DNA of 64,000 nt from Alphaproteobacteria bacterium (GCA_017962125.1 JAGCVZ010000011.1:182255-246254), one strand, 5' to 3'. Counted from the stretch's first letter, positions 3,339 through 60,393 are shown. Notes: a model not told the origin generated them from the sequence alone. Numbers and translations are program-made.

Positions 3339-3423
3339 GCGGATATGGCGGAATTGGTAGACGCTCAGCACTAAGGATGCTGTGGAGAAATCCGTGGGGG
3401 TTCAAGTCCCCCTATCCGCACCA
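3339..3423 (+). tRNA. tRNA-Leu (type II, long variable arm); anticodon loop reads CUAAGGA, i.e. apparent anticodon AAG
   Basis: Cloverleaf folds by hand: acceptor GCGGATA/TATCCGC, D-arm GCGGAATTGGTAGACGC, anticodon stem CAGCA/TGCTG, T-arm GGGGG-TTCAAGT-CCCCC, encoded CCA. Length 85 nt. Confidence 0.8.
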
Positions 3424-3492: not shown

Positions 3493-6303
3493 ATGAAAGG
3501 ATTAAGATTACTTTTTTACGTATGCCTTGGCATGCTTGCCTTTGGGCGGGCGATTGCTGTTGACGGCGACGATACTGCACGCGCCGCTACGCGTCGTTCC
3601 ACATCATCAACAACAATAACAACAACGGCACGTGGCGCACCAACCACAACCACTAAAACCAACGCAACCCCACGCACCGCGACCGTAGCGCCACGAACTG
3701 CTGCAACCGAATCGCGTGGGGCAACCCAGGTGCAAAACGTGATTCCGCGTACGGCATCTTCACGTTCCGCGCCTGCAACTCGCCCGAATGTTCAAAATCG
3801 AACTGCGACCCCCATATCACAAACGCGCCACGAAACGGCAACACGCACTGCGACATCACGCACCGCAACCTCGTCACGCACTGCGGTACAGAAAAAACGC
3901 CCCAAAAGAACACTATCACGTGCGGCAACAAGTGAATCTGGCGCATTGATGACAACATATACAAAATGCCGCACAATTTTTTACGAATGCATGGACGAAT
4001 TTTGTGCGACCAAGGATGCAAACCTACGCCGTTGCGCCTGCTCTAGCCGGTTTAACGAATTTGACGGCATAAAAAAGCAAATGGACAACGTTGAAAATAA
4101 AATGTTAGATTTTAATCAACGCTTGTTAATGGTGAACATGGATGCCGAAGACGTTAACGCAATAAACAACGCTACCGAAGGCGAAGATGCGTTTTATTCC
4201 ACACGTGACACAACGAAATCGAAACGTGTGCTTGACGATATCGCCAAAAAGTTAAACGCAAAATTCGGGGACACAGACTCCAGTAGCAGTAGCACAGGTC
4301 TTGGTGCAATATCGTTAACATTAAACGTTGATGCGGCATTTGACACGGTTGATTCTTTCATGGGAATTGATACGACGACTAAATCTGGGGTTGCGCTCTA
4401 TAATGCGGCAATACCTGTATGTCATGACATCGCATCAGAGGTTTGCACCGACGAAGAACTATCACTTGCACAAAGTGGTTATCAAATGCAGATAGAACAA
4501 GACTGCAATACGGTTAAAAAAGCCTATCAATCTCAGGCTGATCAGGCACGTGCCAAGGTTTTCGAAAGCGGTGCTTTACTTGACATGTCACGCCTTGATG
4601 CGTATCAAACACGAAATTCCGACGACCTTTTGACATGCAAGCGCAAGATGCTTGAAATGTTAACAGATACAACTGTTTGTGGTGCAAAAATGGAAAAATG
4701 TCTTGATATGACGGGGCGTTACATTGATCCAACAACAGGCAAGGCATTCCTTAGTGTGAATTTAGCAGATTTGGACACAATGATTCTACGTCCTGGGGTA
4801 AACCAAACATGGACATCTGCAAACAGCTCTGGAAAATTCATCACCTTTTTAAATGACCGTAAAAAATTTCTGCAAACCGCAACAGAACATTGCGAAAGTA
4901 TCGCTGACACAGTGTGGGATGGTTTTATTGAAGATGCCTTGGCTCAAATCAAACTTGCACAAACCGCAAAACTTGAAGAAATCCGCCAGGCATGTACAAA
5001 ACTAACCACCGAATGTCTTGAACATGCATCGGATTCTATCGAAGAATTTGATGCCCGCGCACTTTCGATATTTGGCGTAATGGCGGACAAAGCGGCGAAC
5101 ACCATGTGTGCCGAGGTGCAAACTTCGTGTGCGAATCTGCTCGGTGCAACGGGGGATGCCTCTTGGGAAACTGGGGTTCATGAAATTTCGACTAACATAA
5201 CATATGAATCCATTCTGTCCAGTTGCACCCAAGTCGGACAAAACTGCATTATCCAAGCATGTAAATCTATTTCCAGTAATTTTGGTCTGTGCAATGACAT
5301 TGATTTTTCTCCAAATCGCCATTCTATATTGGAACGCACCGCATGTTGGGGCGAAGTACTTGATTGTGTTGCGGCGGCGGGCGATGATGCAATTATATCA
5401 ATAATGACTCAACTTAACCCACCCCAAGGTGGTTCCAATCCATACTCTTTTTATAACACACTTTATAATGCCCCAGAATACATAGATGATATTTGTGCTA
5501 ATCAATGTGATGATAGTGATTTTGAATTATCTGAATGTGGAAAATGTCGAATTGCTGAACGCATTTGGGGAAATTGTGAAGCCCCCCCAACAACAACAGT
5601 GGGCAGTCCGGCGCACAACCAAATACTTATCTACACACCGTCGAACAATGGTCAAAGCACACTGTTGTCATGGTTCGCATCAAACACAAACACCAACGAC
5701 GACCCGCGCAGTTGCGTAAATGTCCGTTGCGATTCAAACCACATTGTCTATGATTCAACAGGAACAGAAATGTGTTACACGGATGATCAAGCCCAGAATG
5801 TAACCGATGGCGACCATACGTATTGTCCAGCAAACACCGGCTCACACTTGACCATAATAGTCGACGAAACCCAAAAACAAAATTGTTGTCCCACTGGTCA
5901 AACAATGGGCAGCACAGGTCCATGTTGTGTGGGTAACTTAATCGCGGATGGTATTTGTACTCCGAACAACAACTTCACCAATGTCAACCAGTTGGGGACA
6001 AAAGGCAACACCAAAATATATTGCATTGGCACTATAAGTGGTGACGGATCAACGAATGGCGAATTTCCACAAGGTGATCAGGTAACTTGTAATGGCGTAT
6101 TCGTCATTATTAGCAATGACCAAAAATACTATGGAATGCAATATAATGATAATATTTCAGGTACTATCCCTAATGGTACAAAATACACACCGCAAATGGG
6201 GTATTATACCGGCCCACATAATAATGATGGCAACTTTCAACCTTTTACTACTACTATTGATGACGACAGCAGTTGGTTTATCAGATACATAACGACGCCA
6301 TAA
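3493..6303 (+). CDS. large secreted cysteine-rich protein, paralog P1 of a 5-member family
   Basis: ORF 3382..6303 overlaps the tRNA, so it is trimmed to the ATG at 3493 (MKGLRLLFYVCLGMLAFGRAIA signal peptide). A T/R/A/P-rich low-complexity region of about 150 aa is followed by the motif CRTIFYECMDEFCATKDANLRRCACSS. More than 50 Cys. Confidence 0.7.
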   Translation: MKGLRLLFYVCLGMLAFGRAIAVDGDDTARAATRRSTSSTTITTTARGAPTTTTKTNATPRTATVAPRTAATESRGATQVQNVIPRTASSRSAPATRPNVQNRTATPISQTRHETATRTATSRTATSSRTAVQKKRPKRTLSRAATSESGALMTTYTKCRTIFYECMDEFCATKDANLRRCACSSRFNEFDGIKKQMDNVENKMLDFNQRLLMVNMDAEDVNAINNATEGEDAFYSTRDTTKSKRVLDDIAKKLNAKFGDTDSSSSSTGLGAISLTLNVDAAFDTVDSFMGIDTTTKSGVALYNAAIPVCHDIASEVCTDEELSLAQSGYQMQIEQDCNTVKKAYQSQADQARAKVFESGALLDMSRLDAYQTRNSDDLLTCKRKMLEMLTDTTVCGAKMEKCLDMTGRYIDPTTGKAFLSVNLADLDTMILRPGVNQTWTSANSSGKFITFLNDRKKFLQTATEHCESIADTVWDGFIEDALAQIKLAQTAKLEEIRQACTKLTTECLEHASDSIEEFDARALSIFGVMADKAANTMCAEVQTSCANLLGATGDASWETGVHEISTNITYESILSSCTQVGQNCIIQACKSISSNFGLCNDIDFSPNRHSILERTACWGEVLDCVAAAGDDAIISIMTQLNPPQGGSNPYSFYNTLYNAPEYIDDICANQCDDSDFELSECGKCRIAERIWGNCEAPPTTTVGSPAHNQILIYTPSNNGQSTLLSWFASNTNTNDDPRSCVNVRCDSNHIVYDSTGTEMCYTDDQAQNVTDGDHTYCPANTGSHLTIIVDETQKQNCCPTGQTMGSTGPCCVGNLIADGICTPNNNFTNVNQLGTKGNTKIYCIGTISGDGSTNGEFPQGDQVTCNGVFVIISNDQKYYGMQYNDNISGTIPNGTKYTPQMGYYTGPHNNDGNFQPFTTTIDDDSSWFIRYITTP

Positions 6304-7520: not shown

Positions 7521-10283
7521 ATGCTAACACTGATTGATGGGAATTCGATTTTATTTCGTGCTTACTATGGTGTGCACAGTCGTCTTACACGCGCCGATGG
7601 CACCCCAACCGGTGCAGTATTTGCATTTTTTAACATGATGTTACCGGTATTTGCTGCGGCAAAACCTGACGATATTTTCGTATGTGTGTTCGACGCATCA
7701 CGACAAACTTTCCGTCAGAAAATATACCCAGAATACAAAGCAAACCGAACAGAAACCCCCGCCGATTTGATTTCCCAGGCATTATTGGTTCAACGCGGGC
7801 TCGGTGAAATGGGCGTACCAGTTCTTTGCGTACCTGGTGTAGAGGCCGATGATGTCATCGCAACCATTGCAACAAAAAACTGTCAAATTGCGGAAAAAAC
7901 ACGAATCATGACTGGCGATAAAGATTTAATGCAGTTAGTTTCTGATTGTGTTTTTCTTTATGATGGAATGAAACAACGGCGCATTGAACGTGCCGAAGTC
8001 ATTGAAAAATTTGGTGTTCCGCCTGAACGCGTTATTGATGTTCAATCACTCATGGGCGATTCGTCTGATAACGTTCCAGGTGTTCATGGAATTGGCCCTA
8101 AAAAAGCCGCAGAACTTATCAATGAATTTGGTTCACTTGATGAACTTTACTCGCATTTAAGCGACATAAAAAATGAGCGCACTCGGAAATTACTTTCCGA
8201 ATCGCGTGATTCCGCATATATATCGCGCGAACTTGTAACATTAAAACGTGATGTCGATTTATCAGGATTAAAATTGGGGCCACTACATTTCAATCGGGCA
8301 GCCGCATTAGAATTTGTTCAAAAAGAAATAGAAAGCAATTCGCTGTATGAAAAAATTTCAAAGTTGTTTACGGAAACCGCGACCACACCAACAAAATTTG
8401 AATTTCCAAATTCTGTATGTCCCACAGATACGCCTGCGCCAGAAGACAAGCCAAAACCAGAATCAAAAATGACATTTGCAAAAATAACCACTTTAACGGA
8501 ATTGGAAAAATTCTTGTCTGGGGTTCGTGATGTTATCGCACTGGATACCGAAACCACAGGACTTGACCAAACGACTGCAAAAATGGTTGGAATGTCACTT
8601 GCGATTGACCCCATGCACGGCGTTTATATTCCATTGCGCCACCGCACGACAGCGGGCGATTTGTTTGGTGGTGATGCTGTCGCACCAGGGCAAATTTCAA
8701 TCAAGGATTTGTATAAAAAAATCTGGCCAATTTTAACGGACAAAAAAGTTACTAAGGTTGGTCATAACATAAAGTTCGACCTGCACATTATGGCAAATGA
8801 AGGTTGGGATATTACAAAAATCACACCGATTGACGACACAATGTTGCTGTCATATGCATTACACGGAACATTGCACTCTCACAGCATGGACGAATTGGCA
8901 CTAAGATATTTAAATCACCAAGATATAACTTTCGCATCGTTATTTCCGCCAAAGACACGCGATGCAGATATGCGTTTTGATGAATTACCAATCGACACCG
9001 CTTATCCATACGCTGCCGAAGATGCCGCCATCACGATGGCACTGTATAAACTTATGCGACCGCAACTTGATGCGAACGAAAAACTTCATGAATTGTATGA
9101 AAAATGTGACCGACCACTATTGATAGTTCTGACACAGATGGAACAATGGGGCGTATTGGTGAACAAAAGCAAATTGTTACAACTGTCCGGCGTATTTCAT
9201 GAACAACTTACAAACATAAGTGGTGAAATCTTCGAACTTGCAGGGCATGAATTTAATATCGCAAGTCCGAAACAACTTGCGACCATCCTGTTCGACGAAT
9301 TGCATTTGCCGGGAAACAAAAAACGTTCCACTGATGCGGATTCACTAAACGATTTAATCGAACACCACGAAATCATCGAAAAGATTTTGAATTGGCGTTC
9401 GATTGCGAAACTTGCAGGGACATATGCGGATGCCCTGCCCCGCCAAATTGGTGATGACGGACGTATTCACACAACATATTTGCAAACGAGTACGAATACA
9501 GGCCGTCTGTCCAGTCGCGATCCAAACCTGCAAAACATTCCGGTAAAAACCGAACTTGGAGAAGAAATCCGTAAGTGTTTCGTTGCCGGACCGGGCAAAA
9601 AACTTATTGCGGTCGATTATTCACAAATTCAATTACGCTTGCTTGCGGACGTTGCGAACATAAAAACGTTCAAGGATACATTTATCGCGGGCGCGGACAT
9701 TCACGAACAAACCGCGCGGAAAATCTTTAACATTCCACAAACGACCATAGTTCCGCGTGACCTGCGGCGCGCAGCAAAGACGGTGAACTTTTCTATTATA
9801 TATGGAATTTCATCAATCGGTCTTGCGGCCCAGTTAAATGTTTCGCGCGCGCAGGCGGCGGACATAATAAATTCGTACATGTCGGGGTTACCGGAAATAA
9901 AAAAATATATCGATGATACCAAAGAATTCGCGCGCAAAAACGCATGTGTTTACACACCATGGGGGCGCCGCATCGAATTACCAGAGGTAAAAAATTCCCG
10001 CATGCGTGCATATGCTATGCGTGCTGCAATCAACGCCCCGATTCAGGGGTATGAGGCCGATTTAATGCGTCGCGCGATGGTGGACATTTATAACAAAATC
10101 GTTGTTCCGAACGTCGACAAAATAAAACTTATCATGCAGGTTCACGATGAAATGGTCTTTGAATGTGATGAAGGATCTGCGGAAAGTTTCGCCGAACAAA
10201 TCAAAAACATTATGGAAAACGTAACAAAGATATCTGTACCGCTGCGTGCCGATTATGTCATCGCACCATTTTGGGGAAAGTAA
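7521..10283 (+). CDS. polA: DNA polymerase I
   Basis: 920 aa. Domains recognised: 5'-3' exonuclease N-terminus, 3'-5' exonuclease, and the polymerase motifs DYSQIQLRLLA and QVHDEMVFE. Confidence 0.9.
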   Translation: MLTLIDGNSILFRAYYGVHSRLTRADGTPTGAVFAFFNMMLPVFAAAKPDDIFVCVFDASRQTFRQKIYPEYKANRTETPADLISQALLVQRGLGEMGVPVLCVPGVEADDVIATIATKNCQIAEKTRIMTGDKDLMQLVSDCVFLYDGMKQRRIERAEVIEKFGVPPERVIDVQSLMGDSSDNVPGVHGIGPKKAAELINEFGSLDELYSHLSDIKNERTRKLLSESRDSAYISRELVTLKRDVDLSGLKLGPLHFNRAAALEFVQKEIESNSLYEKISKLFTETATTPTKFEFPNSVCPTDTPAPEDKPKPESKMTFAKITTLTELEKFLSGVRDVIALDTETTGLDQTTAKMVGMSLAIDPMHGVYIPLRHRTTAGDLFGGDAVAPGQISIKDLYKKIWPILTDKKVTKVGHNIKFDLHIMANEGWDITKITPIDDTMLLSYALHGTLHSHSMDELALRYLNHQDITFASLFPPKTRDADMRFDELPIDTAYPYAAEDAAITMALYKLMRPQLDANEKLHELYEKCDRPLLIVLTQMEQWGVLVNKSKLLQLSGVFHEQLTNISGEIFELAGHEFNIASPKQLATILFDELHLPGNKKRSTDADSLNDLIEHHEIIEKILNWRSIAKLAGTYADALPRQIGDDGRIHTTYLQTSTNTGRLSSRDPNLQNIPVKTELGEEIRKCFVAGPGKKLIAVDYSQIQLRLLADVANIKTFKDTFIAGADIHEQTARKIFNIPQTTIVPRDLRRAAKTVNFSIIYGISSIGLAAQLNVSRAQAADIINSYMSGLPEIKKYIDDTKEFARKNACVYTPWGRRIELPEVKNSRMRAYAMRAAINAPIQGYEADLMRRAMVDIYNKIVVPNVDKIKLIMQVHDEMVFECDEGSAESFAEQIKNIMENVTKISVPLRADYVIAPFWGK

Positions 10284-19295: not shown

Positions 19296-21590
19296 ATGAA
19301 AGGGAAAATACTTTCTTTTATACTATGCGCTTTCTGCGCCTTTTCGGCGTTGGCCGCTGTTCGTACGCAAAATTCACCATCCCGCACACCGATTTCAGAA
19401 ACAACAAATCGCACCGATGCCAATGTCGCTACACGCGTGGCAACAAACACGCGAACCATATCAAACCGACGGATAACCAATACCAGACTTGGCACAACCC
19501 GTATCGCACGTATTACACAAACTGCGACATCACCACGTGGCGCGATAACAATGGCGGCAATCGGACGCGCCACGACCAGGAAAAATACAGCACGCGCCAC
19601 AACGGCACGTGCAACCGCCACTCCAACAGTTCAAACAAATACATTCGATGAAAATTATCATAAATGTTACGAGGCATATTTTTCCTGTATGGATCAATTT
19701 TGCGCAACTGTTGATGACCATTATCGTCGTTGTATATGTTCATCAAAACTGGACGGCGTTCAAACACGCGAACGCGCGTTAACTCAGGCATCAAATCAAT
19801 TACAGGATTTCAAAGACCTTAATATCGAAGTAATCTTGAAAACCCCAGAAGAAGTTAAATCTATGCTGTCTGCATCCGAAGGGGAGAAAAAACTTAGCAC
19901 CACACACGATAATTCTGAATCTTCAAAAAAATTAACCGCAATCGGTGATGTTTTAAAGAAAGCCAAAACAAATTCACTATCAACCGCTGGAACATTGGAC
20001 ATAGCCGGCGATATTGGTCAGATATGGAACACAACTGACATCGTATCCGGGGCAAACATTGCAAACCTTACGGGTGAATCGTTATACAACGCCGTACATT
20101 CTCAGTGTGCGGAACTTGTATTACCCACTTGTCCATCAATGACGACATTAAATATGGTTTCTTCGGCATATGGAATGTATATTGAAAACGATTGTTCAAT
20201 ACTGCTTACTGCCCTAGAAAAACAATCTGTAACAGCAAACGCGGCGGTTCGTGAAACGAATCGCGAAATGAACGCGGCACGACTTGAAAATTATAATGCG
20301 CACAATTCAACCGTGATAAACGATTGTATTGCGGGCGTGCGGGCGGATATAACGGCAGATACTGCATGTGGTGAAAATTATGTCCACTGTTTGGATTTAA
20401 CTGGATTATACCTTAATCGTATAACTGGGGAACCAATATATACCAAGAATTTTTATAAACTGAACGACCAGATCTCACTATCTGGGAACATTTTAACAAA
20501 CAGCACTAATGCGAAACTTGTTACCGAATTAAATTCCAAGAGAAAATTCGCCACACACACACTTGAAACATGTCGCGACATCGCCGATACCGTTTGGGAC
20601 GAATATCTGCGCCAGGCAATAACCGAGATATACCAAGGTCAACAATCAAAAATTCAACAGGTTAAGAACGAATGTATGGATGTCGTAAATAAATGCTATG
20701 ACACAAAGACATCGCAATTACGTGATTACAGTAATATCGAAGAACAAATGTTACTTGGTTCTCGTCTTGAACTGTCCGAAGAAATGTGTTCGGAAAAATT
20801 GGAAACATGCAGTAATCTTTACGGTGGTGGTCCAACGGGACTTGCATTGTTAGTAACAGAAATGCATAAAATTGTTGACCAAAAAATTTCGCAAAAATGT
20901 CTTGCCACATTGCAAAATTATGCCCAAAAATTGTGTCGTGTTTCCGGGAACGATATATCACATCAATATCCATATGGATGTCGTGTTTATAAGCCAGGCG
21001 ATATACTTAACGCAACAAATCCAGAATGCACATACAGTGCCGAAATTTATTATGATGGTGACGAACATACCGCACCATCTTCTAGTGGAACCAGTGTCGA
21101 TAGTCTACCCACCGGTTACGATTGTTGGGGTATTCGCGAATACAGCTTATGCAGAACCAACTATTATCTCCATCAAGACAATGACGGTAGGAATAAATGT
21201 TACGTTTGTCCAACAGATTGGTACTGTCCTGGCGGAACAGAGCAACCGCAAAAACACAATGACAACTGCAGTGATTACATAGGAAGCCTGTATCAAAAAA
21301 TGGTTCAGTACGCATTACAATATTGTGTTCGACCAACCGAAGCACAGGCAACAAACACTATTCCTATCGAAGTGCTGGCCGACGTTAATACTGTAATGGA
21401 TTCTATACGTTCCGACATGGCGACAATATTATCCAAAGAATGCACCGACCTGAATGGAACATGGACAGATTATACATCAGCCGCAGAAGACAAGGCATAT
21501 ATAGATTTTTATAACAAAACAAATGCAGACTATAAGTGGGGAGTGTGCATCAATTCGACAGAAGGGTCAGAAAGCGGTGAAGGTGAATAA
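19296..21590 (+). CDS. large secreted cysteine-rich protein, paralog P2
   Basis: 764 aa. Signal peptide MKGKILSFILCAFCAFSALAAV, then a T/R/N-rich basic low-complexity region, then CYEAYFSCMDQFCATVDDHYRRCICSS. The block ETCRDIADTVWDEY matches P1. Confidence 0.7.
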   Translation: MKGKILSFILCAFCAFSALAAVRTQNSPSRTPISETTNRTDANVATRVATNTRTISNRRITNTRLGTTRIARITQTATSPRGAITMAAIGRATTRKNTARATTARATATPTVQTNTFDENYHKCYEAYFSCMDQFCATVDDHYRRCICSSKLDGVQTRERALTQASNQLQDFKDLNIEVILKTPEEVKSMLSASEGEKKLSTTHDNSESSKKLTAIGDVLKKAKTNSLSTAGTLDIAGDIGQIWNTTDIVSGANIANLTGESLYNAVHSQCAELVLPTCPSMTTLNMVSSAYGMYIENDCSILLTALEKQSVTANAAVRETNREMNAARLENYNAHNSTVINDCIAGVRADITADTACGENYVHCLDLTGLYLNRITGEPIYTKNFYKLNDQISLSGNILTNSTNAKLVTELNSKRKFATHTLETCRDIADTVWDEYLRQAITEIYQGQQSKIQQVKNECMDVVNKCYDTKTSQLRDYSNIEEQMLLGSRLELSEEMCSEKLETCSNLYGGGPTGLALLVTEMHKIVDQKISQKCLATLQNYAQKLCRVSGNDISHQYPYGCRVYKPGDILNATNPECTYSAEIYYDGDEHTAPSSSGTSVDSLPTGYDCWGIREYSLCRTNYYLHQDNDGRNKCYVCPTDWYCPGGTEQPQKHNDNCSDYIGSLYQKMVQYALQYCVRPTEAQATNTIPIEVLADVNTVMDSIRSDMATILSKECTDLNGTWTDYTSAAEDKAYIDFYNKTNADYKWGVCINSTEGSESGEGE

Positions 21591-21661: not shown

Positions 21662-22369
21662 ATGAAAAAACAAATCGCGACTTTATTATTTGGCGTTACC
21701 ACATGCGGAACCGCATTTGGTGCGGGGATTGATTGGTGGAATCGTAACACAATTTGTCAAATAAATGACACTCGGTGTTATGCAGAATCCACGGTTGGTA
21801 TAGATTTTAGCTTTGAAACGGGTTGGGATATATCCGGTAACTGTCGCGGCAAAAAGTTTATCTGTGCCGAAGCACTTAGTACCGATGCATCTGATTCTGT
21901 CGGCATGGAACGCGTTGATATTTTACGCAAAAACGGGATTAGCTCTGACTTTGATACAGATGTTTATGTTTCATCTGGTAATTGTTATGGTGCACGCAAA
22001 ACTTCGCAAAATGGAACGATGGCTTTGGTAGATGGCGAATATGTTCGTGTATGGTGTAATGGGATTCTATCTAACCCGACTGGTACTGTTGCGAATGGTG
22101 AAATAACAACAAATGCAAATCCAACATGTCGTGAGTTAGCGGACATGAATTATGTCGCGACATTGAATGGTAATTGTTACGGCAAAAAATACAATCCGGC
22201 AAATTATGCCATTGATTGTGATGGTGAAAATCCAATAATAATTATCTTGAACGGCGCAGAATACGATTCAAACGGTCGCAATCCCATGACAATTTCAACC
22301 GTCAATACGCTCTTTGATAAAATGCAAGCAAACGCAGCCGCACAACGCGCAATTCATTTTCCACAATAG
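21662..22369 (+). CDS. secreted cysteine-rich protein (235 aa)
   Basis: Signal peptide with 14 Cys. Strong RBS AAAGGGAGAAAG. Lies 70 nt downstream of P2. Confidence 0.55.
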   Translation: MKKQIATLLFGVTTCGTAFGAGIDWWNRNTICQINDTRCYAESTVGIDFSFETGWDISGNCRGKKFICAEALSTDASDSVGMERVDILRKNGISSDFDTDVYVSSGNCYGARKTSQNGTMALVDGEYVRVWCNGILSNPTGTVANGEITTNANPTCRELADMNYVATLNGNCYGKKYNPANYAIDCDGENPIIIILNGAEYDSNGRNPMTISTVNTLFDKMQANAAAQRAIHFPQ

Positions 22370-24407: not shown

Positions 24408-24890
24408 TTACTTCGCGCCTGGTTCACCACCACCCTGTTTCATGCGTTCCATAACGGCCTCCATACCGCCCATGCGCTGAATCATCGCCATTTGCTGTTT
24501 CATTTTCAGATATTGTTTAATAATATGTTCCACGTCACGCACAGTAACACCCGCGGTTTCCGCAATGCGCGCCTTGGCATTGGCAAAGATTTTTTCCGGG
24601 TCTGCACGTTCCGCGGCGGTCATTGCTTCCAGTATTTTAATCTGAGCATCGACACTGCCGTCCTTGATTTTTTCCTTCATCGCCGCAACCGCGCCCGACA
24701 TACCTGGCACCATTTTCAGCAGCCCACTAAAATTACTCATCTTTTTAATCTGCTTTAATTGTGCAAGCATATCGTTCATATCAAACTGCCCCGCCATCAT
24801 GCGTTCCGCGGTTTCTTTCATGCCCTTTGGCATATGCGGTTCTTCCGCGCTAACATTTTCTTCTTTTTTCTTTTTACCAAATCCAAACAT
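24408..24890 (-). CDS. stand-alone SRP54/Ffh M-domain homolog (no NG/GTPase domain)
   Basis: 160 aa. FDMNDMLAQLKQIKKM..LKMVPGM.. and a Met-rich ..MKQQMAMIQRMGGMEAVMERM.. align to the Ffh M domain. Own GGAGAA RBS. Only 45 nt separate it from the uvrA stop, so no NG domain lies upstream. Confidence 0.6.
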   Translation of the reverse strand: MFGFGKKKKEENVSAEEPHMPKGMKETAERMMAGQFDMNDMLAQLKQIKKMSNFSGLLKMVPGMSGAVAAMKEKIKDGSVDAQIKILEAMTAAERADPEKIFANAKARIAETAGVTVRDVEHIIKQYLKMKQQMAMIQRMGGMEAVMERMKQGGGEPGAK

Positions 24891-30615: not shown

Positions 30616-31056
30616 TTACTCGACCAGATTGCCAAATATAGCGGTGCGAAGGCCAAGGTTCGACCCAAGGTTATTACTGCATTTTTGTGCACACCCACTT
30701 GAACAAGAGTTACCCGGATAACCATTCCCTATCCAGATAGATTCCACAGGATGCAACATTTTACAAAAGCAATAAGTCTTTTGCGTCTGATTCATAAGAC
30801 AATCTTGGCTCGTTGGTACAACCCCAGGCGCACTTGAGGTGTTTTGACCACAGGCATAACTACATATAGAAATCCCACTTACAATCCCGTAACTAAACTG
30901 TGTGGACCATGTGTTGTTGGTTGCATCACTTGACAAGCCTGTCCCGCTAATTTGCGGGTCCAAGACGACCATAATACTGCCGTCTTTTACGCACATGTTT
31001 TCCCCATATGCAATAATTGGTAAAATCATAAATAATAATATAATTATTCTTTTCAT
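30616..31056 (-). CDS. small secreted cysteine-rich protein (trio member 1)
   Basis: ORF trimmed to the ATG at 31056 (MKRIIILLFMILPIIAYG). 10 Cys. C-terminal ..LRTAIFGNLVE. Confidence 0.55.
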   Translation of the reverse strand: MKRIIILLFMILPIIAYGENMCVKDGSIMVVLDPQISGTGLSSDATNNTWSTQFSYGIVSGISICSYACGQNTSSAPGVVPTSQDCLMNQTQKTYCFCKMLHPVESIWIGNGYPGNSCSSGCAQKCSNNLGSNLGLRTAIFGNLVE

Positions 31057-31076
31057 TTTATTTCCCTTTTTCCTTT

Positions 31077-33937: not shown

Positions 33938-36514
33938 TTACATTTGCATATCTTCACACTTTTCAACCGGGTCAGACTCAGTACAATTAACTTCGTCCTT
34001 TTGTCCTATACCCAAGAATCCATTTTTATGCACTGTATTGCAACTCTTGGTCACCGTCGAAGAACAAAGCCGACATATACGCGTTTCACGATTAAATGTT
34101 GACCACATTTGGCGCGTGCCACCTGGGATATTATATGCACTTTTATTACCGGCACCAGACAAGGCATATACACCTTCACTTGCGCCAAGCGATACAGCCG
34201 CCGACAAACCACGCATAACCTTATCGCCCACACCTTTGCCATAACCCGCTCTCTCGTTACTCACACTGCCCATACCACTTGTTGCGGACGTACCATGACC
34301 ACCCTGGGCAAGCAATCTATTATCCAACCCCACCCCTACTTCATAACTAATCGCGTATGGTGGCGCAAGATTTACCTGTTGTTCTTGTACTGCCTTTCCA
34401 CCAAAAATTCCACGTGAAAAAGGCAACATTTGGCAATTATATTGTGCAATGTCAACCTCTGCATCTCGGCTTGCCTTGGCAACATATTCATCGAATTTAG
34501 CTCTCTGATTCTCTGATGCTTTATTCAACGCCGCACTTGTGATTTTGCCCAAATACTGATTTAACAAATTCGGGAAACGCGCCACAGTGGATGTACCAGT
34601 ATCACCTGTTATCTGATCCAAACTACGCCCTGTTACACAGAACTGAATTTTTGGATCCAATTCAATCATATCTATCACACGATTTATTTTCTCTGCAACA
34701 CTGTTCAACTCCATTTCTATAGATGCCAAAATACCTTCTGAATCCTTAACGCCATCATTTACCTCTCTAGCACGCGCCATATAATCTTTGACACCAACTT
34801 TACCAAGGCCAAGCTTCTTACCCCCATCTTTCTTGGTGCTACCATCGCCGACGTTCAGCATATCAAACGAAATCATCCCAGTAATACGATATACATTACC
34901 ATCTTTCACACTGCGCAAACTGCCTGTGCCAATTGTTTCATCAGATGCCCAACGATTGCAATCGGTTGTAGAACCACAAATTTCCATCATTTTATCTTCG
35001 ACAACTTTCTGACAATTTTCTAATGCTTTGTTATCCATATTCAGATAAAGCCCCATTATCATGGAATCAATATCTTCCATCTTGAAGTTTTTATTATTCG
35101 CCTTGCAAACCACAAGTTTATCAAGTGGACAAAGATTATGAACAAATTCCCAATCCATACCTATACAATTCATAAAATCAGGTCCACAACGATCTTCGGA
35201 ATAAATACAATCTTTAACCTCCTGGGTGCACGCATCAACACGCATCGCCGCTAACTTGTCTTTTACATATCCCCAAATCAGTGGTTCCATACGTTCACAC
35301 GGATCAAGTTGAACCTTGCAAAACGATCTCGCCATATCAGGTCGTGATAAACACGAATCCATTGTCGCCTTGCCCTTGCCCACAATATCATCTTTGCAAG
35401 CCGTTTGAATACATTTCGTAATATCCGTTAAACAAGATTGCCGCACATTGGATTCTGCACGCAATTCTGCAAGTTTCAAACTTGGGGCAACTTCACGTAA
35501 AAACGCAGTCCAAACATTATTACGTACCGCCATACATTGGTCCAAAACTCGTTCACAAATTGTTCGTTTTGATTCAAGCCGTTCCAACACTGACGGTGTT
35601 ATATCGTAAGCAACGGTTGTACTTACCTTGGTCCCGGCGGTACTAGTTGCGGTCTTGTTTTGCATATTTTCATTTGCAATTATGGAAACACAATTTACCC
35701 AATCATCCCCGCAAGCATCAGCGCCAAGCATACAGTTTTTCAATTCAACCATGCATTCACCCTGATTGAATTTATTAGATGAATCAAAACTTTCTTTTAA
35801 CGCGGTTCTAACATCGGATTCTGCCGAATTCATTGCGGATTTCGCCGCAGCACGTTGTTCGGCAATACTATTTGCAAACCCACGACAATCCGATTCTATC
35901 TGACGTTGATAAATCTGTTTTAACAATTTTATATCTTTAACACACGATGAACCCAACTGATCTCGACATGTATCATCCGCAACTTTGAACAGTTCCGCCC
36001 CAGTCTTGTGCATAATATCATCATCGTCTTCTTCGTCATCTTCTTCGCTTAAATTTGTTTCAAACATCTTCATCAAACTTTCACGTTTCGATTTTCTCTT
36101 ATCCGCCGCGGTCATCTCTCCGACTTTGATAACATTTCCTTTTTCGTCATATTTGCGTTCACCCGTAAAGACAATATCTGCATTTGCACCAAGTTTTATT
36201 TTTTCTACCTCTACCGTTTTTACACGATCGGCCTCGGCTAACATTTCGTTTATTTCTTCAAGTTCGGCTTCATACTTTGTATTACTGTTACTACACAGAC
36301 AACTGCCCCCATTTATATTTTCCGACATACAAAATTGATCCATACAACCATAGTATTCATCATAGCATTCCTGAGAATAAATGCCCTTGGCCGCAACCCG
36401 CGCACGAACATTTGTCCCATTTTGAATTGCTGATTGTTTCTTTGCTGTTGCCGCAACCGCAACAACCGGTATAATCAATAACGCTGATAAAAAGGCAATT
36501 TTTTTCATTTTCAT
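33938..36514 (-). CDS. large secreted cysteine-rich protein, paralog P3
   Basis: 858 aa. Signal peptide, then CYDEYYGCMDQFCMSENINGGSCLCS, an acidic DDEEDDDD run, ICERVLDQCMAVRNNVW, and a C-terminal ..CTESDPVEKCEDMQM. Confidence 0.7.
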   Translation of the reverse strand: MKMKKIAFLSALLIIPVVAVAATAKKQSAIQNGTNVRARVAAKGIYSQECYDEYYGCMDQFCMSENINGGSCLCSNSNTKYEAELEEINEMLAEADRVKTVEVEKIKLGANADIVFTGERKYDEKGNVIKVGEMTAADKRKSKRESLMKMFETNLSEEDDEEDDDDIMHKTGAELFKVADDTCRDQLGSSCVKDIKLLKQIYQRQIESDCRGFANSIAEQRAAAKSAMNSAESDVRTALKESFDSSNKFNQGECMVELKNCMLGADACGDDWVNCVSIIANENMQNKTATSTAGTKVSTTVAYDITPSVLERLESKRTICERVLDQCMAVRNNVWTAFLREVAPSLKLAELRAESNVRQSCLTDITKCIQTACKDDIVGKGKATMDSCLSRPDMARSFCKVQLDPCERMEPLIWGYVKDKLAAMRVDACTQEVKDCIYSEDRCGPDFMNCIGMDWEFVHNLCPLDKLVVCKANNKNFKMEDIDSMIMGLYLNMDNKALENCQKVVEDKMMEICGSTTDCNRWASDETIGTGSLRSVKDGNVYRITGMISFDMLNVGDGSTKKDGGKKLGLGKVGVKDYMARAREVNDGVKDSEGILASIEMELNSVAEKINRVIDMIELDPKIQFCVTGRSLDQITGDTGTSTVARFPNLLNQYLGKITSAALNKASENQRAKFDEYVAKASRDAEVDIAQYNCQMLPFSRGIFGGKAVQEQQVNLAPPYAISYEVGVGLDNRLLAQGGHGTSATSGMGSVSNERAGYGKGVGDKVMRGLSAAVSLGASEGVYALSGAGNKSAYNIPGGTRQMWSTFNRETRICRLCSSTVTKSCNTVHKNGFLGIGQKDEVNCTESDPVEKCEDMQM

Positions 36515-36515: not shown

Positions 36516-38666
36516 CTACATATTTACATCTTCACAAGATTCTATTTCCTGGCAGAAAGTTTCTTGACCGCCCGATGCGTAACCCATTGCACCAAAAGCA
36601 GCCGCACCAACAAGTGCCCCAATCGCAGTTCCCCAACCAGCACTTACCATGGTTCCCGCAGATGCTCCGGTTGATAAACCGCCAGCCGCAGCCTTTAACA
36701 TCGAGGTAGATTTCTTTTCGCCCCCAACTTCACAAACGCGTTGCATACGGCATACATGGCAATTACGTAATGAAGGTTCAAAAGAAACACTCTTTATATA
36801 AGAGTAAGACGTTTTTTCATCTTTTTCTTCTGCTTTTTTCTTTTCTGGCTTATAAAGTGTCAAACAATTTTCACGTGCTTCTTCCACATCTTGTTGCCGC
36901 GACAATTCCGCCACACGCGATTCCAAATCGGTAAGATAGCGATTTTCTGCGCCATTTTCTGCTATCATTTTTGCCGTCACAAAAATACTATCTTTCAAAC
37001 TTTTCCGACCTGCGGGTTGCTGCGCGCTTTTACATGCATCAACAGTAGCCTCCTTTTCAAACTGCTTAAAGAACTCCTCAACTGCAGTTTTACTTTCATC
37101 TTTCACTCTCTGACGCAAATCAGTCTTTCCAGATTCAGTACTAGGTAATTTAGTTAAAGTTTCTACAATATCACTCTTTGGTAAACAATTCATATCTGTT
37201 CCACAAATACGTCCCAGCATATCATCGTAATAGTTAATACAGCCTTGCATCATTTGATAATTCATCTGCAACAGCACAGAACTTACAATAACATCATAAA
37301 ATTTTTCACTTTTGCACGAAGGAAACATATCTTGGGGGCAAAGATCGACAATTTCTTGCGCGTTTTTCCCAAGGCACTGCGGTCCTGTGAAATTTTCACC
37401 ACATTTATTGCGCAAACATTTATCAACATCCGACTGACAAAAATCTGTCCGCAATGCCACCAACTTTTCGTTCCAACTCTGTTTAAGCCCCGGAATTTTA
37501 GCATCACATTCGTTTATAATTGGGCACACCCCCGCCGCAACATTTACATTCGTTAAACACCCTGTATCAGTCGACACAGCGCACCCATCTTCTAAACAAG
37601 CACGAATTTTGGCATTGCACGTCAGACGCATATTTCTATCACTATAAACCGCCGCATCGGCAAGAATCATTTTTGCTTCGTCCTTCCAATCATCCAAAAC
37701 GAAAGTTCTAACCGCCATACATTGATCTAAAATATTTTCACACGCATTTGCACGCCGTTCCAAAAGTTTTGCATCTAAACAATTTTCAAACTGAACACCA
37801 CAACCACCCTTGTCGGCAATACATGCGCGATACGCAAGCAAACATTCACCACGATTATACTTATTTGTAGTTCCTAACATATCCAATGTCGCCGACCGCA
37901 CAGCCGCATCCGCCGTCCGCTTGTTGGATTCCGCTGCGCGCTTTTGTTCTGCTAGATACCCAGTAAAAGTTTTACAATCTTTGAGTATTTCGCGCTGATA
38001 AAGTTTTTCTTCCATATCGGCACGTTTATTGTCACATGTTTTTAAAATAAAATCACAAGATTCAGCCGCTATATCATAAAGATTATCACCAATATCAGCA
38101 TCAGCATCCAAACTGGAATTCGTATCGCCATTTATCCATGCAACAAGGTCTATCCCCGTCTTGCGCGAAGATTTTTTTGCTTGGTCACTTTCACCAAATT
38201 TTATAAATTTCGCCTTGGCTCCAAGTTTTTCACGTTCGACCCCTTCTGTATATTGCTTTTCCGCCGCGAGTTCAATATCTTGAATTTCTTTAATTAATTT
38301 TTTTGATTGTTTTATATTGTTCGAACAAGAACAACGCCCCCCTTCGGATTCGTCCAACAAACAAAAATCATCCATACATTCACGATAGGCTTCGCGACAT
38401 TCTTCTGGACTAAGGTTTTCAATATCGTATTCTTCAACTTCCTCAGATGTAACACTAACCTCTTCTACTTCCGCGGGCTCCTCTACTTTTGCCACTGGCG
38501 CGCTTGAACTTTTACTATTCACTAAATTTATATTTTTTGTCTTAACCGCAGGACCAACAGACAACGACGGTCCACGAATGCCCGCCCGATTACCACCATC
38601 GCGCGTTGCCCCAAAACTAACACATGGCAAAAGCGCCAAAATAACAAAGAATATTTTGATTTTCAT
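36516..38666 (-). CDS. large secreted cysteine-rich protein, paralog P4 (tandem with P3)
   Basis: 716 aa. RBS AAGGAAAAA. CREAYRECMDDFCLLDESEGGRCSCS, ACENILDQCMAVRTFVL, a Gly-rich segment near the C-terminus, and ..CQEIESCEDVNM. Stop is 1 nt from the P3 ATG. Confidence 0.7.
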   Translation of the reverse strand: MKIKIFFVILALLPCVSFGATRDGGNRAGIRGPSLSVGPAVKTKNINLVNSKSSSAPVAKVEEPAEVEEVSVTSEEVEEYDIENLSPEECREAYRECMDDFCLLDESEGGRCSCSNNIKQSKKLIKEIQDIELAAEKQYTEGVEREKLGAKAKFIKFGESDQAKKSSRKTGIDLVAWINGDTNSSLDADADIGDNLYDIAAESCDFILKTCDNKRADMEEKLYQREILKDCKTFTGYLAEQKRAAESNKRTADAAVRSATLDMLGTTNKYNRGECLLAYRACIADKGGCGVQFENCLDAKLLERRANACENILDQCMAVRTFVLDDWKDEAKMILADAAVYSDRNMRLTCNAKIRACLEDGCAVSTDTGCLTNVNVAAGVCPIINECDAKIPGLKQSWNEKLVALRTDFCQSDVDKCLRNKCGENFTGPQCLGKNAQEIVDLCPQDMFPSCKSEKFYDVIVSSVLLQMNYQMMQGCINYYDDMLGRICGTDMNCLPKSDIVETLTKLPSTESGKTDLRQRVKDESKTAVEEFFKQFEKEATVDACKSAQQPAGRKSLKDSIFVTAKMIAENGAENRYLTDLESRVAELSRQQDVEEARENCLTLYKPEKKKAEEKDEKTSYSYIKSVSFEPSLRNCHVCRMQRVCEVGGEKKSTSMLKAAAGGLSTGASAGTMVSAGWGTAIGALVGAAAFGAMGYASGGQETFCQEIESCEDVNM

Positions 38667-49746: not shown

Positions 49747-50571
49747 ATGTTTTGGACAATCCTCATTCTGGTTATCGGAATTGCACTCTTCTTGTTTGGC
49801 GGCATGTTCGTTAAACACGATGGTAAAAAATCTGAATCCAGTCCTACGATGATCGTAAAATTGATCAAATTGGTTGCTATCATTTTGATCGCTGGCTGTG
49901 TCTGCCGTTTGTACACACCGTACTACCTGACACATACAAACCCAATGATTCTGCAAGAAATGGTATCTGCGATGCAGGAACAACAGAACGCTGAAAAGAA
50001 CAAGGCGATTCGCAAATATGTTCGTTCGAATATGAAGGACATGATTGGCGATGCACCGATTTGGGGTAAAGAAGATGCGAAAAAAACTATCTTCTTGTGG
50101 TCTGATTATTCTTGCCCATATTGCCGTCGTGTTCATGGCGAATTGGCTCGTGTTATGGGAAGTCGTGATGATGTTCGCGTTGTCTTGAAAAACTTCTCTA
50201 TCCATGGTGAATTGTCTGATGCACCGGCCAAGGCTGTTATCGCTGCAAGATTACAAGGCAATGACAAAGCCGCCGCATTAGATAGAAAGTTGATGGAAAA
50301 AGAATATTATACCCAAGATGATATGAAAGATCGTTCTAAACTTGGTGAAAAAATCAAAAAGAACGTCATGAAGTTGGCTGCTGAAGTTGATTTGGATACC
50401 GCCCAGTTAGAAAAGGATATGAACGGTGAAGTTGTCGCACGTGAATTGAAAAACGTTCGTGATTTGGCACAACGTTTCGAAATCAGTGGCACGCCATACC
50501 TGGTTATTGGCGAAGAAGCTTTCCCAGGCGCGATACCATACGATCAGATTATCAAGGCGTTGGATAAATAA
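49747..50571 (+). CDS. membrane-anchored DsbA-family thiol:disulfide oxidoreductase
   Basis: 274 aa. Two N-terminal hydrophobic segments, then a thioredoxin fold with the CPYC active site (..LWSDYSCPYCRRVH..). Confidence 0.75.
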   Translation: MFWTILILVIGIALFLFGGMFVKHDGKKSESSPTMIVKLIKLVAIILIAGCVCRLYTPYYLTHTNPMILQEMVSAMQEQQNAEKNKAIRKYVRSNMKDMIGDAPIWGKEDAKKTIFLWSDYSCPYCRRVHGELARVMGSRDDVRVVLKNFSIHGELSDAPAKAVIAARLQGNDKAAALDRKLMEKEYYTQDDMKDRSKLGEKIKKNVMKLAAEVDLDTAQLEKDMNGEVVARELKNVRDLAQRFEISGTPYLVIGEEAFPGAIPYDQIIKALDK

Positions 50572-58407: not shown

Positions 58408-60393
58408 ATGAAATTCTATTCGAGCCTTTTATTCGGTGTAATTTTTGCAATGACTGCTTTGCCGGCGGTCTCTAATGTTGCGACAACGGCTGGATCGAAC
58501 CTTACTGCATACAATGGCACCGGTGCCACGAATAATAACAAATGGAATAACCTTATGAACGGTCGCGCCGGTATGTCGCAAACCACGGCAGAGGCGAATT
58601 TTGGAAACTGTAATGCGATTGTGTTGCGTTGCGCGTCGCCAAAGTGCGCATCGGGTGGATGTACCGACATGAATGTTGCGGCGGCAATAGTTGCAGGGTG
58701 TGTAAATTCAAATCAAAATTGCAAGCAATATGGCGATGACTTAATCCAGTACATCACCGCCCAGGTTGTGGCGCAATCAACTGCCAAGGTGCAGCAACAA
58801 CAAAACGCCGTTGAAATAGCCAAGGCACAGGCCGATGCCCAGGCGTCCGCAGCAGCGCAGAGTAACGCCCAAATGCAACAAATGCAGCAGCAAATGGCGC
58901 AGATGCAACAGCAAATGGCGGAATCTATGAACGCGATGCAGGAGCAAATGGCGGCGGCGGCGGAATCACAAAACGCACAAATTCAAAGCGCATTAGAAGC
59001 CCAGACCACATCGGCAAATGCCTATGCAAACACCGGCGCAGCCCCGATCGAAACCGGCGCGGTGATTTCGGGACTCGAAGGCCTTGGGGTCGCGGAACAA
59101 CTGGCCGCGAAAAACGGCATCAGTGCGGAAATTTTGGTTCGCGAACAAATTGGCGGTCAAATTGAAACCGCGATTGAAGATGCAACACTTAAAATGAAAG
59201 AATTAAAACAGCAACTTGATGCAATCATTGAATACGCAGGTTGTGACCCATCGGTAACAAAATGTACCGGTCCAAAACGTGTTAAAAAATTCAAAGACAT
59301 GGCAAACGAATTTTTCGACCCGTACGAAGGTGTTCTTGAAAGTATGTATGATGCACTTATTACCGCAGTTACGGTCGGTATTGATGTGAGTGATGTTGTT
59401 ATGTTGCTAAGTGATTCATGTAATTTGTGGGGAAAATTCCTTTGTGACCCATGCTCTTTACCCCAAGCAAAAAAAGATGGACAAGCCACAGATCCATCTA
59501 CCAATGAAATTTGCTTCTGTAATAATTATAACGATACAACACACGAATACACAAATTGTTACTATCGCGTCAAGACAAGTTCATCAAATGATGGACGTGT
59601 TACCAGCAAACAAAGTCATTGCCGTATGGTCGGCCAAGTAGGCAACAAAGAAGATGTTTGGCACGAATGGATTGATCCAAATTCGGGCATAGGCGGCGCA
59701 ACCCAGGTCGCGTGCGCTTCTGATATTATCGGGGATATATCCATATTTAGTACCGTTATAAAACGCAAAAACACAACGATAGATATCGAAACATTACGCG
59801 ACCTTATAAACCAAGATTCTTGTACCTGCGGTGTTAACAAAGACGGCTCTTTCGATGTTTTAGAAGATTGTTGCGCCAGACGTTGCAATGTTGACCCACA
59901 TAACGATAAAGATAGAATGAGCCAATTACAAACAGCCGTCGACACAAAAAAGTGGCCAACAAAAAATGCGTGCTTTGCAGATGAAAAAAGTTTCAGAAAA
60001 TTAGACAACGGCGGTTCATCGAATAGTGAAATCGCCACAACAACCAACATAACCGTCACTGGGTTGAATACAAACATTAATTCTTGCGATGCATATCTAA
60101 CAGAAACAGCCTGCACATTTGTATCCGATAATTGCATATGGTTAAGCGCATCAAAAAAATGTATCAGTAAAACCATAGACACCAATTTAACATTTAACCA
60201 AAATTTGGTTAACAATGAAAACAACATCTTAAAAGGCACAAACACAACTATTGAAGCAAAGAACGGTATAATACAGGCACAATCTGGTTTTTCCGGTGTT
60301 GTTAACGGGGCATGCAGTTCTTACAATCTGTTTGAATGTCCGGAAAATGTATGCAAAAAAAATTACATAACAGGTAAATGTGTGAATAAATAA
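58408..60393 (+). CDS. large secreted cysteine-rich protein, divergent paralog P5
   Basis: 661 aa. Signal peptide, then CNAIVLRCASPKCASGGC (Cx6Cx4Cx4C), a Q/M/A-rich repeat (..QMQQMQQQMAQMQQQMAESMNAMQEQMAAAAE..), and a Cys-rich C-terminal half. RBS GAGAGAGA. Confidence 0.65.
   Translation: MKFYSSLLFGVIFAMTALPAVSNVATTAGSNLTAYNGTGATNNNKWNNLMNGRAGMSQTTAEANFGNCNAIVLRCASPKCASGGCTDMNVAAAIVAGCVNSNQNCKQYGDDLIQYITAQVVAQSTAKVQQQQNAVEIAKAQADAQASAAAQSNAQMQQMQQQMAQMQQQMAESMNAMQEQMAAAAESQNAQIQSALEAQTTSANAYANTGAAPIETGAVISGLEGLGVAEQLAAKNGISAEILVREQIGGQIETAIEDATLKMKELKQQLDAIIEYAGCDPSVTKCTGPKRVKKFKDMANEFFDPYEGVLESMYDALITAVTVGIDVSDVVMLLSDSCNLWGKFLCDPCSLPQAKKDGQATDPSTNEICFCNNYNDTTHEYTNCYYRVKTSSSNDGRVTSKQSHCRMVGQVGNKEDVWHEWIDPNSGIGGATQVACASDIIGDISIFSTVIKRKNTTIDIETLRDLINQDSCTCGVNKDGSFDVLEDCCARRCNVDPHNDKDRMSQLQTAVDTKKWPTKNACFADEKSFRKLDNGGSSNSEIATTTNITVTGLNTNINSCDAYLTETACTFVSDNCIWLSASKKCISKTIDTNLTFNQNLVNNENNILKGTNTTIEAKNGIIQAQSGFSGVVNGACSSYNLFECPENVCKKNYITGKCVNK

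Follow-up and report, generated by a model that had tools for sequence, protein, structure and literature searches.

An unnamed family of large, predicted exported cysteine-rich proteins in reduced-genome gut Alphaproteobacteria of the order Rs-D84

The 64,000-nucleotide (nt) stretch analyzed here (Alphaproteobacteria bacterium GCA_017962125.1, JAGCVZ010000011.1:182255-246254; hereafter the window) belongs to the chromosome of a Candidatus Enterousia species (order Rs-D84) and encodes four large cysteine-rich proteins, P1 to P4, that form one paralogous family. Judging from profile and motif searches, the P1–P4 family is new at the sequence level, without name or annotation, and large, and we found it only in reduced-genome gut Alphaproteobacteria of the order Rs-D84, that is, in Candidatus Enterousia and its relatives. 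We propose that these proteins may build an envelope or surface apparatus out of disulfide-stapled rods whose exposed tips vary, a reading that we hold tentatively and would place somewhat short of an even chance. The four genes, together with a fifth that had been grouped with them, are as follows (ORF, open reading frame; HMM, hidden Markov model; aa, amino acids).

3493..6303 (+): P1, 936 aa, P1/P2-type; ORF and translation, family HMM E-value 6e-267, syntenic orthologs in sister genomes
19296..21590 (+): P2, 764 aa, P1/P2-type; ORF, family HMM 1.3e-201, AlphaFold2 model
33938..36514 (-): P3, 858 aa, P3/P4-type; ORF, family HMM 4.8e-144
36516..38666 (-): P4, 716 aa, P3/P4-type; ORF, family HMM 3.7e-125
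58408..60393 (+): P5, separate cysteine-rich secreted protein with a Q/A-rich central region, 661 aa; not a member of the P1–P4 family

All five ORFs lie where a preliminary description of the window had placed them, and each begins, as it had also said, with a signal-peptide-like N-terminus (basic n-region, hydrophobic stretch and AxA-like site). Its view of a paralogous family of exported cysteine-rich proteins is borne out for P1–P4 by BLASTP, HMM and alignment, and the family has four members instead of five, as P5 fails BLASTP, the family HMM and profile-profile comparison. In BLASTP searches among P1–P5, where E-values refer to this 5-sequence database, P1 matches P2 at 4.5e-57 and P3 matches P4 at 1.6e-47, and the cross pairs between P1/P2 and P3/P4 reach 1e-11 to 1e-16 over 250–360 aa. 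A profile HMM built from 124 family sequences and run unfiltered (--max) on all 411 window ORFs recovers P1–P4 with the E-values listed above. A MAFFT alignment of P1–P4 has at least 17 invariant cysteines across ~450 residues, and the collinear blocks quoted in the preliminary description do align in it. P1–P4 occupy 9.8 kb of the window, so that the ~12 kb previously attributed to the family is approached (11.8 kb) only with P5 counted. We counted 39, 31, 36, 37 and 30 cysteines in P1 to P5, a range of 30–39 where 30–60 had been given; these make up 4.1–5.2% of residues, compared with 0–2.2% in clearly cytoplasmic window proteins. Eleven window ORFs with signal-peptide-like or hydrophobic N-termini contain 3.6–5.5% cysteine and together cover about a quarter of the 64 kb, and the beta-barrel-type exported proteins of the window (DUF3078, Pom-like, OmpA-domain, SurA) are cysteine-poor.

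P5 gives nothing better than E=0.5 against P1–P4 in BLASTP and no match at E<=10 with the 124-sequence HMM (--max), and hhalign returns a probability of 0.3% when P5 alone is compared with a 71-sequence family profile and 2.3% when a 27-sequence P5 profile is used. Divergent membership of P5 is ruled out by BLASTP, HMM and the two hhalign runs, and therefore only the Cx6Cx4C spacing is common to P5 and P1–P4. P5 has its own orthogroup in the same lineage (1318 matches; none of the 120 listed has a name other than ‘hypothetical’, and Pfam marks are limited to a few faint ones for CotO, PF14153), within which its own N-terminal cysteine module is invariant. Together with an adjoining 250-aa cysteine-rich secreted ORF at 60398–61150 (+), P5 (30 cysteines) makes up another lineage-specific module, 58408–61150.

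The four family members follow two architectures. P1 and P2 consist of a signal peptide, a 100–150-aa basic disordered Thr/Ser/Ala/Arg-rich tether, the core, and a cysteine-rich variable C-terminus. In P4 and P3, encoded by adjoining and tightly spaced genes, the linker is short and the core continues into a conserved C-terminal extension, which in P4 carries near its end a cysteine-flanked Gly-zipper-like hydrophobic segment. The longest ORF around P1 begins at GTG 3382, overlapping a tRNA-Leu gene (3339–3423); because this GTG lies within the tRNA gene and ATG 3493 gives a typical signal peptide, ATG 3493 is the sensible start of P1. The parts of the four proteins are listed here (pLDDT, predicted local distance difference test score).

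3493..3558 (+): P1 signal peptide, aa 1–22, MKGLRLLFYVCLGMLAFGRAIA; hydrophobic N-terminus with K/R residues
3559..3942 (+): P1 basic T/R/S/A-rich disordered linker, aa 23–150; pLDDT <50 for residues 16–151
3943..5292 (+): P1 conserved core, predicted all-helical, with invariant cysteines, aa 151–600, begins CRTIFYECMDEFC; conservation, model helices 150–590
5293..6300 (+): P1 fast-evolving C-terminal region, aa 601–936; small helical cysteine-rich part, then a beta-rich domain ending WFIRY-ITTP
aa 1–20 (+): P2 signal peptide; signal-peptide-like N-terminus
19356–19646 (+): P2 linker, aa 21–117; disordered in the AlphaFold2 model
19647–20993 (+): P2 core, aa 118–566; pLDDT mostly >90
20994–21587 (+): P2 variable C-terminal region, aa 567–764; 48–52% identity to sister species
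37347–38411 (-): P4 core, ~aa 86–440; family HMM
36519–36803 (-): P4 conserved C-terminal segment, aa 622–716; CHVC...C, Gly-zipper-like stretch, ending ...CQEIESCEDVNM
35105–36379 (-): P3 core, ~aa 46–470; C-terminus conserved, ends ...CEDMQM

Directly after the linker, P1–P4 share the module C-x6-C-M-D-x-F-C-x9/10-C-x-C, whose five cysteines are invariant in 222 relatives and whose CMDxFC motif has M, D and F each at least 90% conserved in a 71-sequence alignment. Over the whole alignment of these 222 diverse relatives, 18 cysteine columns are 100% invariant (P2 residues 124, 131, 136, 146, 148, 271, 279, 300, 344, 358, 365, 426, 460, 467, 498, 505, 535 and 547). The AlphaFold2 model of P2 (mean pLDDT 76, with 311 residues at 90 or above) is disordered at residues 15–115 and all-alpha at 119–582, with helices of up to 56 residues; that of P1 (mean pLDDT 69) has a disordered linker at 16–151, a helical core at 150–590 and a beta-rich domain at 750–936. 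Specifically, P2 C460-x6-C467 and C498-x6-C505 are symmetric about the predicted loop (479–486) of a helical hairpin, which suggests a twin Cx6C hairpin stapled by two disulfides once exported to an oxidizing compartment. More generally, the spacing of the invariant cysteines would fit helix staples. Correlated gain and loss of cysteine columns was also considered as proof of disulfide pairs; the signal is strong (a P3/P4-specific pair in 18/18) but confounded by subfamily phylogeny, and we did not use it.

The preliminary description had not recognized the module, and indeed no Pfam or NCBIfam model and no PDB sequence relative exists for the family among those searched. Pfam and NCBIfam gave nothing but noise on P1–P4 (Pfam E<=1) and nothing above threshold on P5, on the 8 longest relatives or on the isolated C-terminal parts and partner proteins. 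Chlam_OMP6 (OmcB) has no Pfam match in P1–P4, and the Sel1 repeats of Helicobacter cysteine-rich proteins have none in P1–P4 or relatives. The family profile had 0 matches at E<=10 among PDB sequences, and Foldseek searches of the PDB with the P1 and P2 models found nothing at E<=0.001; the core helices resemble generic three-helix bundles only, with no specific fold match and no fold similarity to solved VSG or DBL structures. Part of the P2 model, its position unreported, resembled the cysteine-rich repeats of TNFR (OX40) over 36–39 columns (probability 0.87, E>2). Among 48 diverse members, one carries Ephrin_rec_like (PF07699, 1.9e-8) and one a Listeria-Bacteroides repeat (3.8e-6), module types typical of extracellular proteins; the C-terminal regions encoded in the window itself have no Pfam match.

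A profile search covering 5.8 billion proteins returned 192 relatives, all unnamed or ‘hypothetical’ and none with a Pfam domain, from gut or rumen metagenome-assembled genomes (MAGs) labelled Alphaproteobacteria. In HMMER searches of 1.84 billion cluster representatives, we obtained 1001 clusters (50% identity) at E<=1e-3, 840 at <=1e-10 and 608 at <=1e-30; the best 150 of the 1001 are 479–1186 aa long, most of them matched across most of the profile. A CMDxF motif scan over 185,579 species genomes yielded 279 stretches that were confirmed, one of them in a closed circular genome of 958,618 bp. The best 80 of these 279 come from MAGs labelled Candidatus Enterousia, Alphaproteobacteria, Rickettsiales, proteobacterium or bacterium, the exceptions being 2 Muribaculaceae, and their hosts include cattle, goat, sheep, buffalo, yak, deer, horse, chicken, mouse, human and termite. 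Rs-D84 genomes of 0.75–1.0 Mb lack flagella, the tricarboxylic acid cycle and a respiratory chain, as well as amino-acid, nucleotide or fatty-acid biosynthesis and standard transporters, and a partner-dependent lifestyle has been proposed for them (PMC12306168). Rs-D84 and Candidatus Enterousia occur widely in the guts of ruminants, birds, horses, humans and termites (PMC12306168), and termites with and without gut flagellates both yield Rs-D84 MAGs (PMC11257099). We found no mention of the P1–P4 family in the Enterousia / Rs-D84 literature that we consulted.

P1–P4 are evidently ancient paralogs. Their mutual identity is only 18–29%, and among relatives there are four orthogroups, each nearest one of P1–P4 at 45–88% identity; a comparison of gene order, as proposed in the preliminary description, showed that each of the four has a separate set of syntenic orthologs elsewhere among Enterousia / Rs-D84 genomes. 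We calculated the ratio of nonsynonymous to synonymous substitutions (dN/dS), likewise proposed there, by the Nei-Gojobori method between orthologs in sister genomes ~95% identical in nucleotides, leaving out L001–L004, which are 99.97–100% identical to the window. Values are low in the core (0.02–0.11 overall; 0.07–0.11 for P1 and 0.02–0.07 for P2, with PolA at 0.07–0.11) and higher in the P1/P2 C-termini (0.15–0.54 overall), at 0.19–0.54 for P1, with a raised dS of 0.44–0.47 in pairs with L010, and 0.15–0.34 for P2. Core conservation is on par with PolA, TilS and FtsH. In amino-acid identity between window protein and ortholog in the closest sister species, the P1 core reaches 86–88% beside 88–91% for PolA and 82–88% for Pth (one outlier at 57%), and the P2 core 84–87% beside 86–90% for TilS and 82–92% for FtsH. 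The corresponding values are 53–63% for the P1 linker and 39–48% and 48–52% for the P1 and P2 C-terminal regions. The earlier statement that the C-terminal halves diverge is supported; it is the P1/P2 tips that evolve fast, and the C-termini of P3/P4 are conserved in orthologs.

In P1 and P2 the identity of the C-terminus is decoupled from that of the core, which fits allele exchange by recombination. For P1, identities of core and C-terminus are 97% and 67% between L005 and L010, 98% and 77% between L019 and L038, and 91% and 85% between L013 and L038, so that L038 is nearest to L019 in its core but to L013 in its C-terminus. P2 behaves alike between L081 and L082 (core 95%, C-terminus 67%). 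Such mosaic fast change is limited to the C-terminal domains of P1/P2 and, less strongly, their linkers, and within the genus the end motifs are kept, (N)W(F/Y)I(R/H/K)Y in P1 and FYNxTNANxKWGxC in P2. In the wider family, C-terminal regions range from ~200 to 600 aa and differ in sequence. The linkers of the window proteins, described earlier as ~150 aa, were found where expected and shorter, at ~128 aa in P1 (23–150) and ~97 aa in P2 (21–117). Across relatives the basic character of P1/P2 linkers is conserved, judging by composition: median length and net charge are 143 aa and +16 for P1 (n=67), 116 aa and +13 for P2 (n=95), 24 aa and +5 for P3 (n=11) and 64 aa and 0 for P4 (n=7).

P4 and P3 form a tandem pair in which P3 begins 1 nt after the P4 stop codon, and the order infA - P4 - P3 recurs in a species only ~55% identical. 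Compared with a distant ortholog, P3 shows 52% identity from end to end, the C-terminal RETRxCxxCxxTxTxxCxT...CEDxxM included, and in P4 the C-terminus ranks second in conservation among the parts of the protein, being retained in orthologs 55–58% identical overall with the consensus SFEPxLRNCHVCRMQxVCExGG - AAGGLxxGASAGTMVxxGWGTAIGxVVG... - FCQEIESCEDxNM. A terminal CED-x-x-M motif is common to both proteins. We observed that the glycine-rich stretch of P4 scores below threshold against Gly-zipper families (Gly-zipper_YMGG E=0.76 and Gly-zipper_Omp E=2.5 for P4 itself; Gly-zipper_Omp, PF13488, E=0.0052 for ortholog P0070, 17.1 bits compared with a Pfam cut-off of 25), with weaker sub-threshold matches of the P4 C-terminus to PF13441, PF05433 and NCBIfam YiaD_Gzip_OmpA (E=0.2). 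Possibly, this segment is a membrane-inserting hairpin. On one ENA contig (BRZ_BB NODE_876; L086/L087), a block of infA - P4-like - P3-like - BOF ... P2-like plus small partner occurs twice, its copies ~10.9 kb apart with identical gene sizes, either as a tandem duplication or as an assembly artefact.

In the P1/P2 type, a small cysteine-rich secreted protein is usually encoded directly downstream. The partner of P2 in the window is the following.

21662..22369 (+): cys235, 235-aa cysteine-rich secreted protein with 10 cysteines, directly downstream of P2

The gene order tilS - LOG - ... - P2 - cys235 - DUF805 - rlmE is conserved, and cys235, which has no Pfam match, directly follows P2 in every examined ortholog locus that reaches far enough, distant ones included. 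Downstream of a P2-like gene with ~33% identity to P2, after a gap of 10 nt, lies a gene for a 274-aa cysteine-rich secreted protein with no detectable similarity to cys235. Directly upstream of a distant P2-like gene, L088 encodes at 9429–9944 a polytopic membrane protein of 171 aa, in which an FCPVC motif closely follows the signal-like N-terminus; this protein could be a thiol-redox partner. In sister species, a 318–350-aa cysteine-rich secreted ORF lies between P1 and pth (L005 8425–9381; L014 8979–10031). The window has no homolog of this gene, the distance from the end of P1 to pth being 50 bp, and the L005 copy has a sub-threshold Ephrin_rec_like match (E=0.004).

The DsbA noted nearby in the preliminary description was confirmed as follows.

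49747..50571 (+): DsbA-like thiol:disulfide oxidoreductase; Pfam DSBA 4e-17, Thioredoxin_4 3.8e-17

Its N-terminal stretch is strongly hydrophobic, and no DsbB or VKOR gene was seen beside it in the window. In the arrangement that we propose, P1–P4 would be exported by predicted Sec-type signal peptides and their cysteines then oxidized by this DsbA; intramolecular disulfide staples would yield rigid, protease-resistant helical rods; P4 and P3 would serve as a conserved membrane-associated base; and P1 and P2 would be tethered rods showing variable ligand-binding or antigenic tips at the cell surface, possibly joined there by the small partner proteins. A functional link between this DsbA and the P1–P4 family, and likewise a surface or host-interaction function of P1–P4, are inferences. 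Since a life at the expense of a partner or host is proposed for these bacteria, the structure would most likely serve envelope integrity, attachment, or both. Lineage-wide syntenic retention, purifying selection at a housekeeping level and the coupling of P4 and P3 together suggest a fixed assembly and not interchangeable antigens, and the recombining tips of P1/P2 suggest that part of the assembly faces outside.

Several points weigh against stapled rods with exposed tips. The disulfide pairing is deduced from spacing and predicted helices, and the models have predicted template modelling scores of only 0.43–0.51, leaving the overall rod shape uncertain. C-terminal dN/dS stays <1 when averaged over the domain, where relaxed constraint plus recombination could suffice without positive selection, and the Gly-zipper matches fall below Pfam thresholds and could be compositional. 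The signal peptide is the sole evidence for the localization of P1–P4, and we identified no outer-membrane export route (autotransporter barrel, lipobox, or type I, type II or type IX secretion signal). Finally, the lineage is reported to be without a respiratory chain, so that re-oxidation of DsbA is hard to account for.

The main rival is a periplasmic or inner-leaflet envelope scaffold, a disulfide-rich network under or in the outer membrane that would stiffen a fragile reduced-genome cell, in function like the chlamydial cysteine-rich outer-membrane complex, and never be surface-exposed. It would account for Sec signal peptides as the only export signals found, for a core conserved like housekeeping genes throughout the lineage, and for a Gly-zipper-like anchor resembling those of periplasm-facing outer-membrane lipoproteins; a Pom-like porin and DUF3078 adjoin, an OmpA-domain protein and DsbA are encoded elsewhere in the window, and the cysteine fraction of 4–5% is like that of chlamydial OmcB. 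However, the mosaic fast-evolving C-termini of P1/P2 are hard to explain if buried, a few relatives carry extracellular-type repeats, the invariant cysteine positions would fit intramolecular staples over intermolecular cross-links, and there is no Pfam match to chlamydial OMP families. On balance, we regard a purely periplasmic scaffold as unlikely, if still a serious candidate. A bolder extension of the rod proposal, in which P1–P4 and their small partners would be a lineage-defining surface organelle (P4/P3 as outer-membrane base, stapled P1/P2 rods on basic linkers, and recombining tips that recognize the partner cell in an attachment or feeding apparatus), is in our judgement decidedly improbable; if true, such an organelle would sustain Rs-D84 bacteria, with their genomes of ~0.9 Mb, in the absence of biosynthesis and standard transporters.

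The preliminary description had taken the genes for a diversifying family, which would make the paralogs recently diverged, interchangeable variants for antigenic variation or host interaction. In its favor, the 64 kb contain several copies, the paralogs differ strongly in their C-terminal halves, and the P1/P2 C-termini are fast-evolving and recombining. For the family as a whole, the sequence comparisons largely refute this reading, to which we give little credence: the copies are 18–29% identical to each other and have one-to-one syntenic orthologs at 45–88%, core dN/dS is 0.02–0.11, P3/P4 are conserved end to end, we found no DNA tandem repeats in the linkers that could provide a phase-variation mechanism, and tblastn with P2 gave no match in 50,697 phage and 72,556 plasmid records. 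A bacteriocin-like or polymorphic-toxin module, in which a conserved N-terminal part would deliver a variable C-terminal killing domain and the small downstream gene would confer immunity, seems to us highly improbable. The order of disordered N-terminal region, long helical region and variable C-terminus would suit it, as would the small fast-diverging adjoining gene, present or absent by genome, and colicin Ia is among the weak, non-significant Foldseek matches (E 4–8). Yet within the genus the C-termini are alignable, with conserved cysteines and end motifs and no unrelated cassettes; P1–P4, relatives, C-terminal parts and partners have no toxin or immunity Pfam matches; signal peptides and many cysteines are also found in the downstream proteins; the genes are single-copy, syntenic and lineage-wide; P3/P4 lack a variable C-terminus; and a disulfide-rich domain is unlikely to act in a target cytoplasm. 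That the shared motif is a compositional, low-complexity coincidence among unrelated ORFs holds only for P5 and has next to no probability for P1–P4, where BLASTP, HMM and alignment statistics and the 18 invariant cysteine columns in 222 sequences refute it.

The housekeeping genes pth, polA, ftsH, tilS, rlmE, uvrA, clpPX, grpE, tpiA, dxs/tkt, recO and pgk lie between P1–P4. The order DUF3078 - o1071 - Pom-like porin - P1 - pth - polA is kept across sister species, tRNA-Leu stands directly upstream of P1 in the window, and in a relative (L007/L061) P1 and P2 lie ~16 kb apart on one contig, as they do here. A promoter and terminator scan around P1 gave counts barely above shuffled expectation and was uninformative. 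Divergently upstream of P1, 1703–3238 (-) encodes a 511-aa exported protein with a Pfam Pom match (1.4e-7, above the cut-off), Pom being the Protochlamydia outer membrane protein family and unexpected in an alphaproteobacterium. Three closely spaced small cysteine-rich secreted ORFs of 271, 149 and ~146 aa without Pfam match lie at 30616–32341 (-), downstream of P4-P3-mscS and tRNA-Arg, and the two smaller ones are paralogs (BLASTP 2e-13). Directly downstream of uvrA, a 160-aa ORF at 24408–24890 (-) comprises an SRP54 M-domain only (SRP_SPB 1.2e-22), with no adjoining NG (GTPase) domain; it might represent an ffh gene that was split or truncated. At 54978–56090 (+) lies the gene for a probable lipoprotein, which has 14 cysteines and a lipobox (LAAC) and for which the apicomplexan SAG Surface_antigen domain gave a sub-threshold match (E=0.004).

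Four large proteins with cores conserved at the level of DNA polymerase take up about 1% of such a genome, and their being kept to this degree speaks for an essential role in the envelope or in contact. With ~1000 clusters at 50% identity, the family offers a concrete entry point into the Rs-D84 way of life, where the conserved core could help to locate the cells or the structure and the variable tips could reveal a binding target. Among very large helical proteins stapled by multiple disulfides, it would be a further, bacterial case, made by an anaerobe reportedly without a respiratory chain that could drive the re-oxidation of DsbA.

Among known systems, chlamydial OmcB and OmcA are, as predicted for P1–P4, Sec-exported envelope proteins with ~4–5% cysteine in a host-dependent bacterium, and a homolog of the Pom-type (Protochlamydia) porin adjoins P1. 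The disulfides of OmcB/OmcA are thought to give mechanical stability. In contrast, they have no sequence or Pfam relationship to P1–P4, OmcB is beta-rich whereas the P1–P4 core is predicted to be all-helical with invariant cysteines at helix-staple spacing, and the P1–P4 family has a variable C-terminal domain and four fixed paralogs. The zipper pattern of small residues in the P4 C-terminus (...AGGLSTGASAGTMVSAGWGTAIGALVGAAAFGAMGY...) is shared with Gly-zipper outer-membrane (lipo)proteins (Gly-zipper_Omp PF13488; Rick_17kDa_Anti PF05433; SlyB/PCP), from which P4 differs in having no lipobox, a score under 25 bits, and a zipper flanked by conserved cysteines and placed C-terminally in a 700-aa protein. 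Colicin-type bacteriocins and polymorphic toxins also combine a disordered N-terminus, long helices, a variable C-terminus and a small downstream gene, but P1–P4 have signal peptides, many cysteines and syntenic single-copy genes, and no toxin or immunity signature. As in the twin-CxnC hairpins of CHCH domains and small Tim proteins, cysteine pairs stand about two helical turns apart on antiparallel helices; here the spacing is Cx6C and not Cx9C or Cx3C, the pairing is deduced, and the proteins are bacterial, 10 times larger and without detectable homology. In their general plan, P1–P4 would resemble streptococcal M proteins, trypanosome VSG and Plasmodium DBL-domain proteins, in which an elongated helical scaffold is combined with a fast-evolving, recombining exposed part, and both VSG and DBL are disulfide-bonded helical domains.

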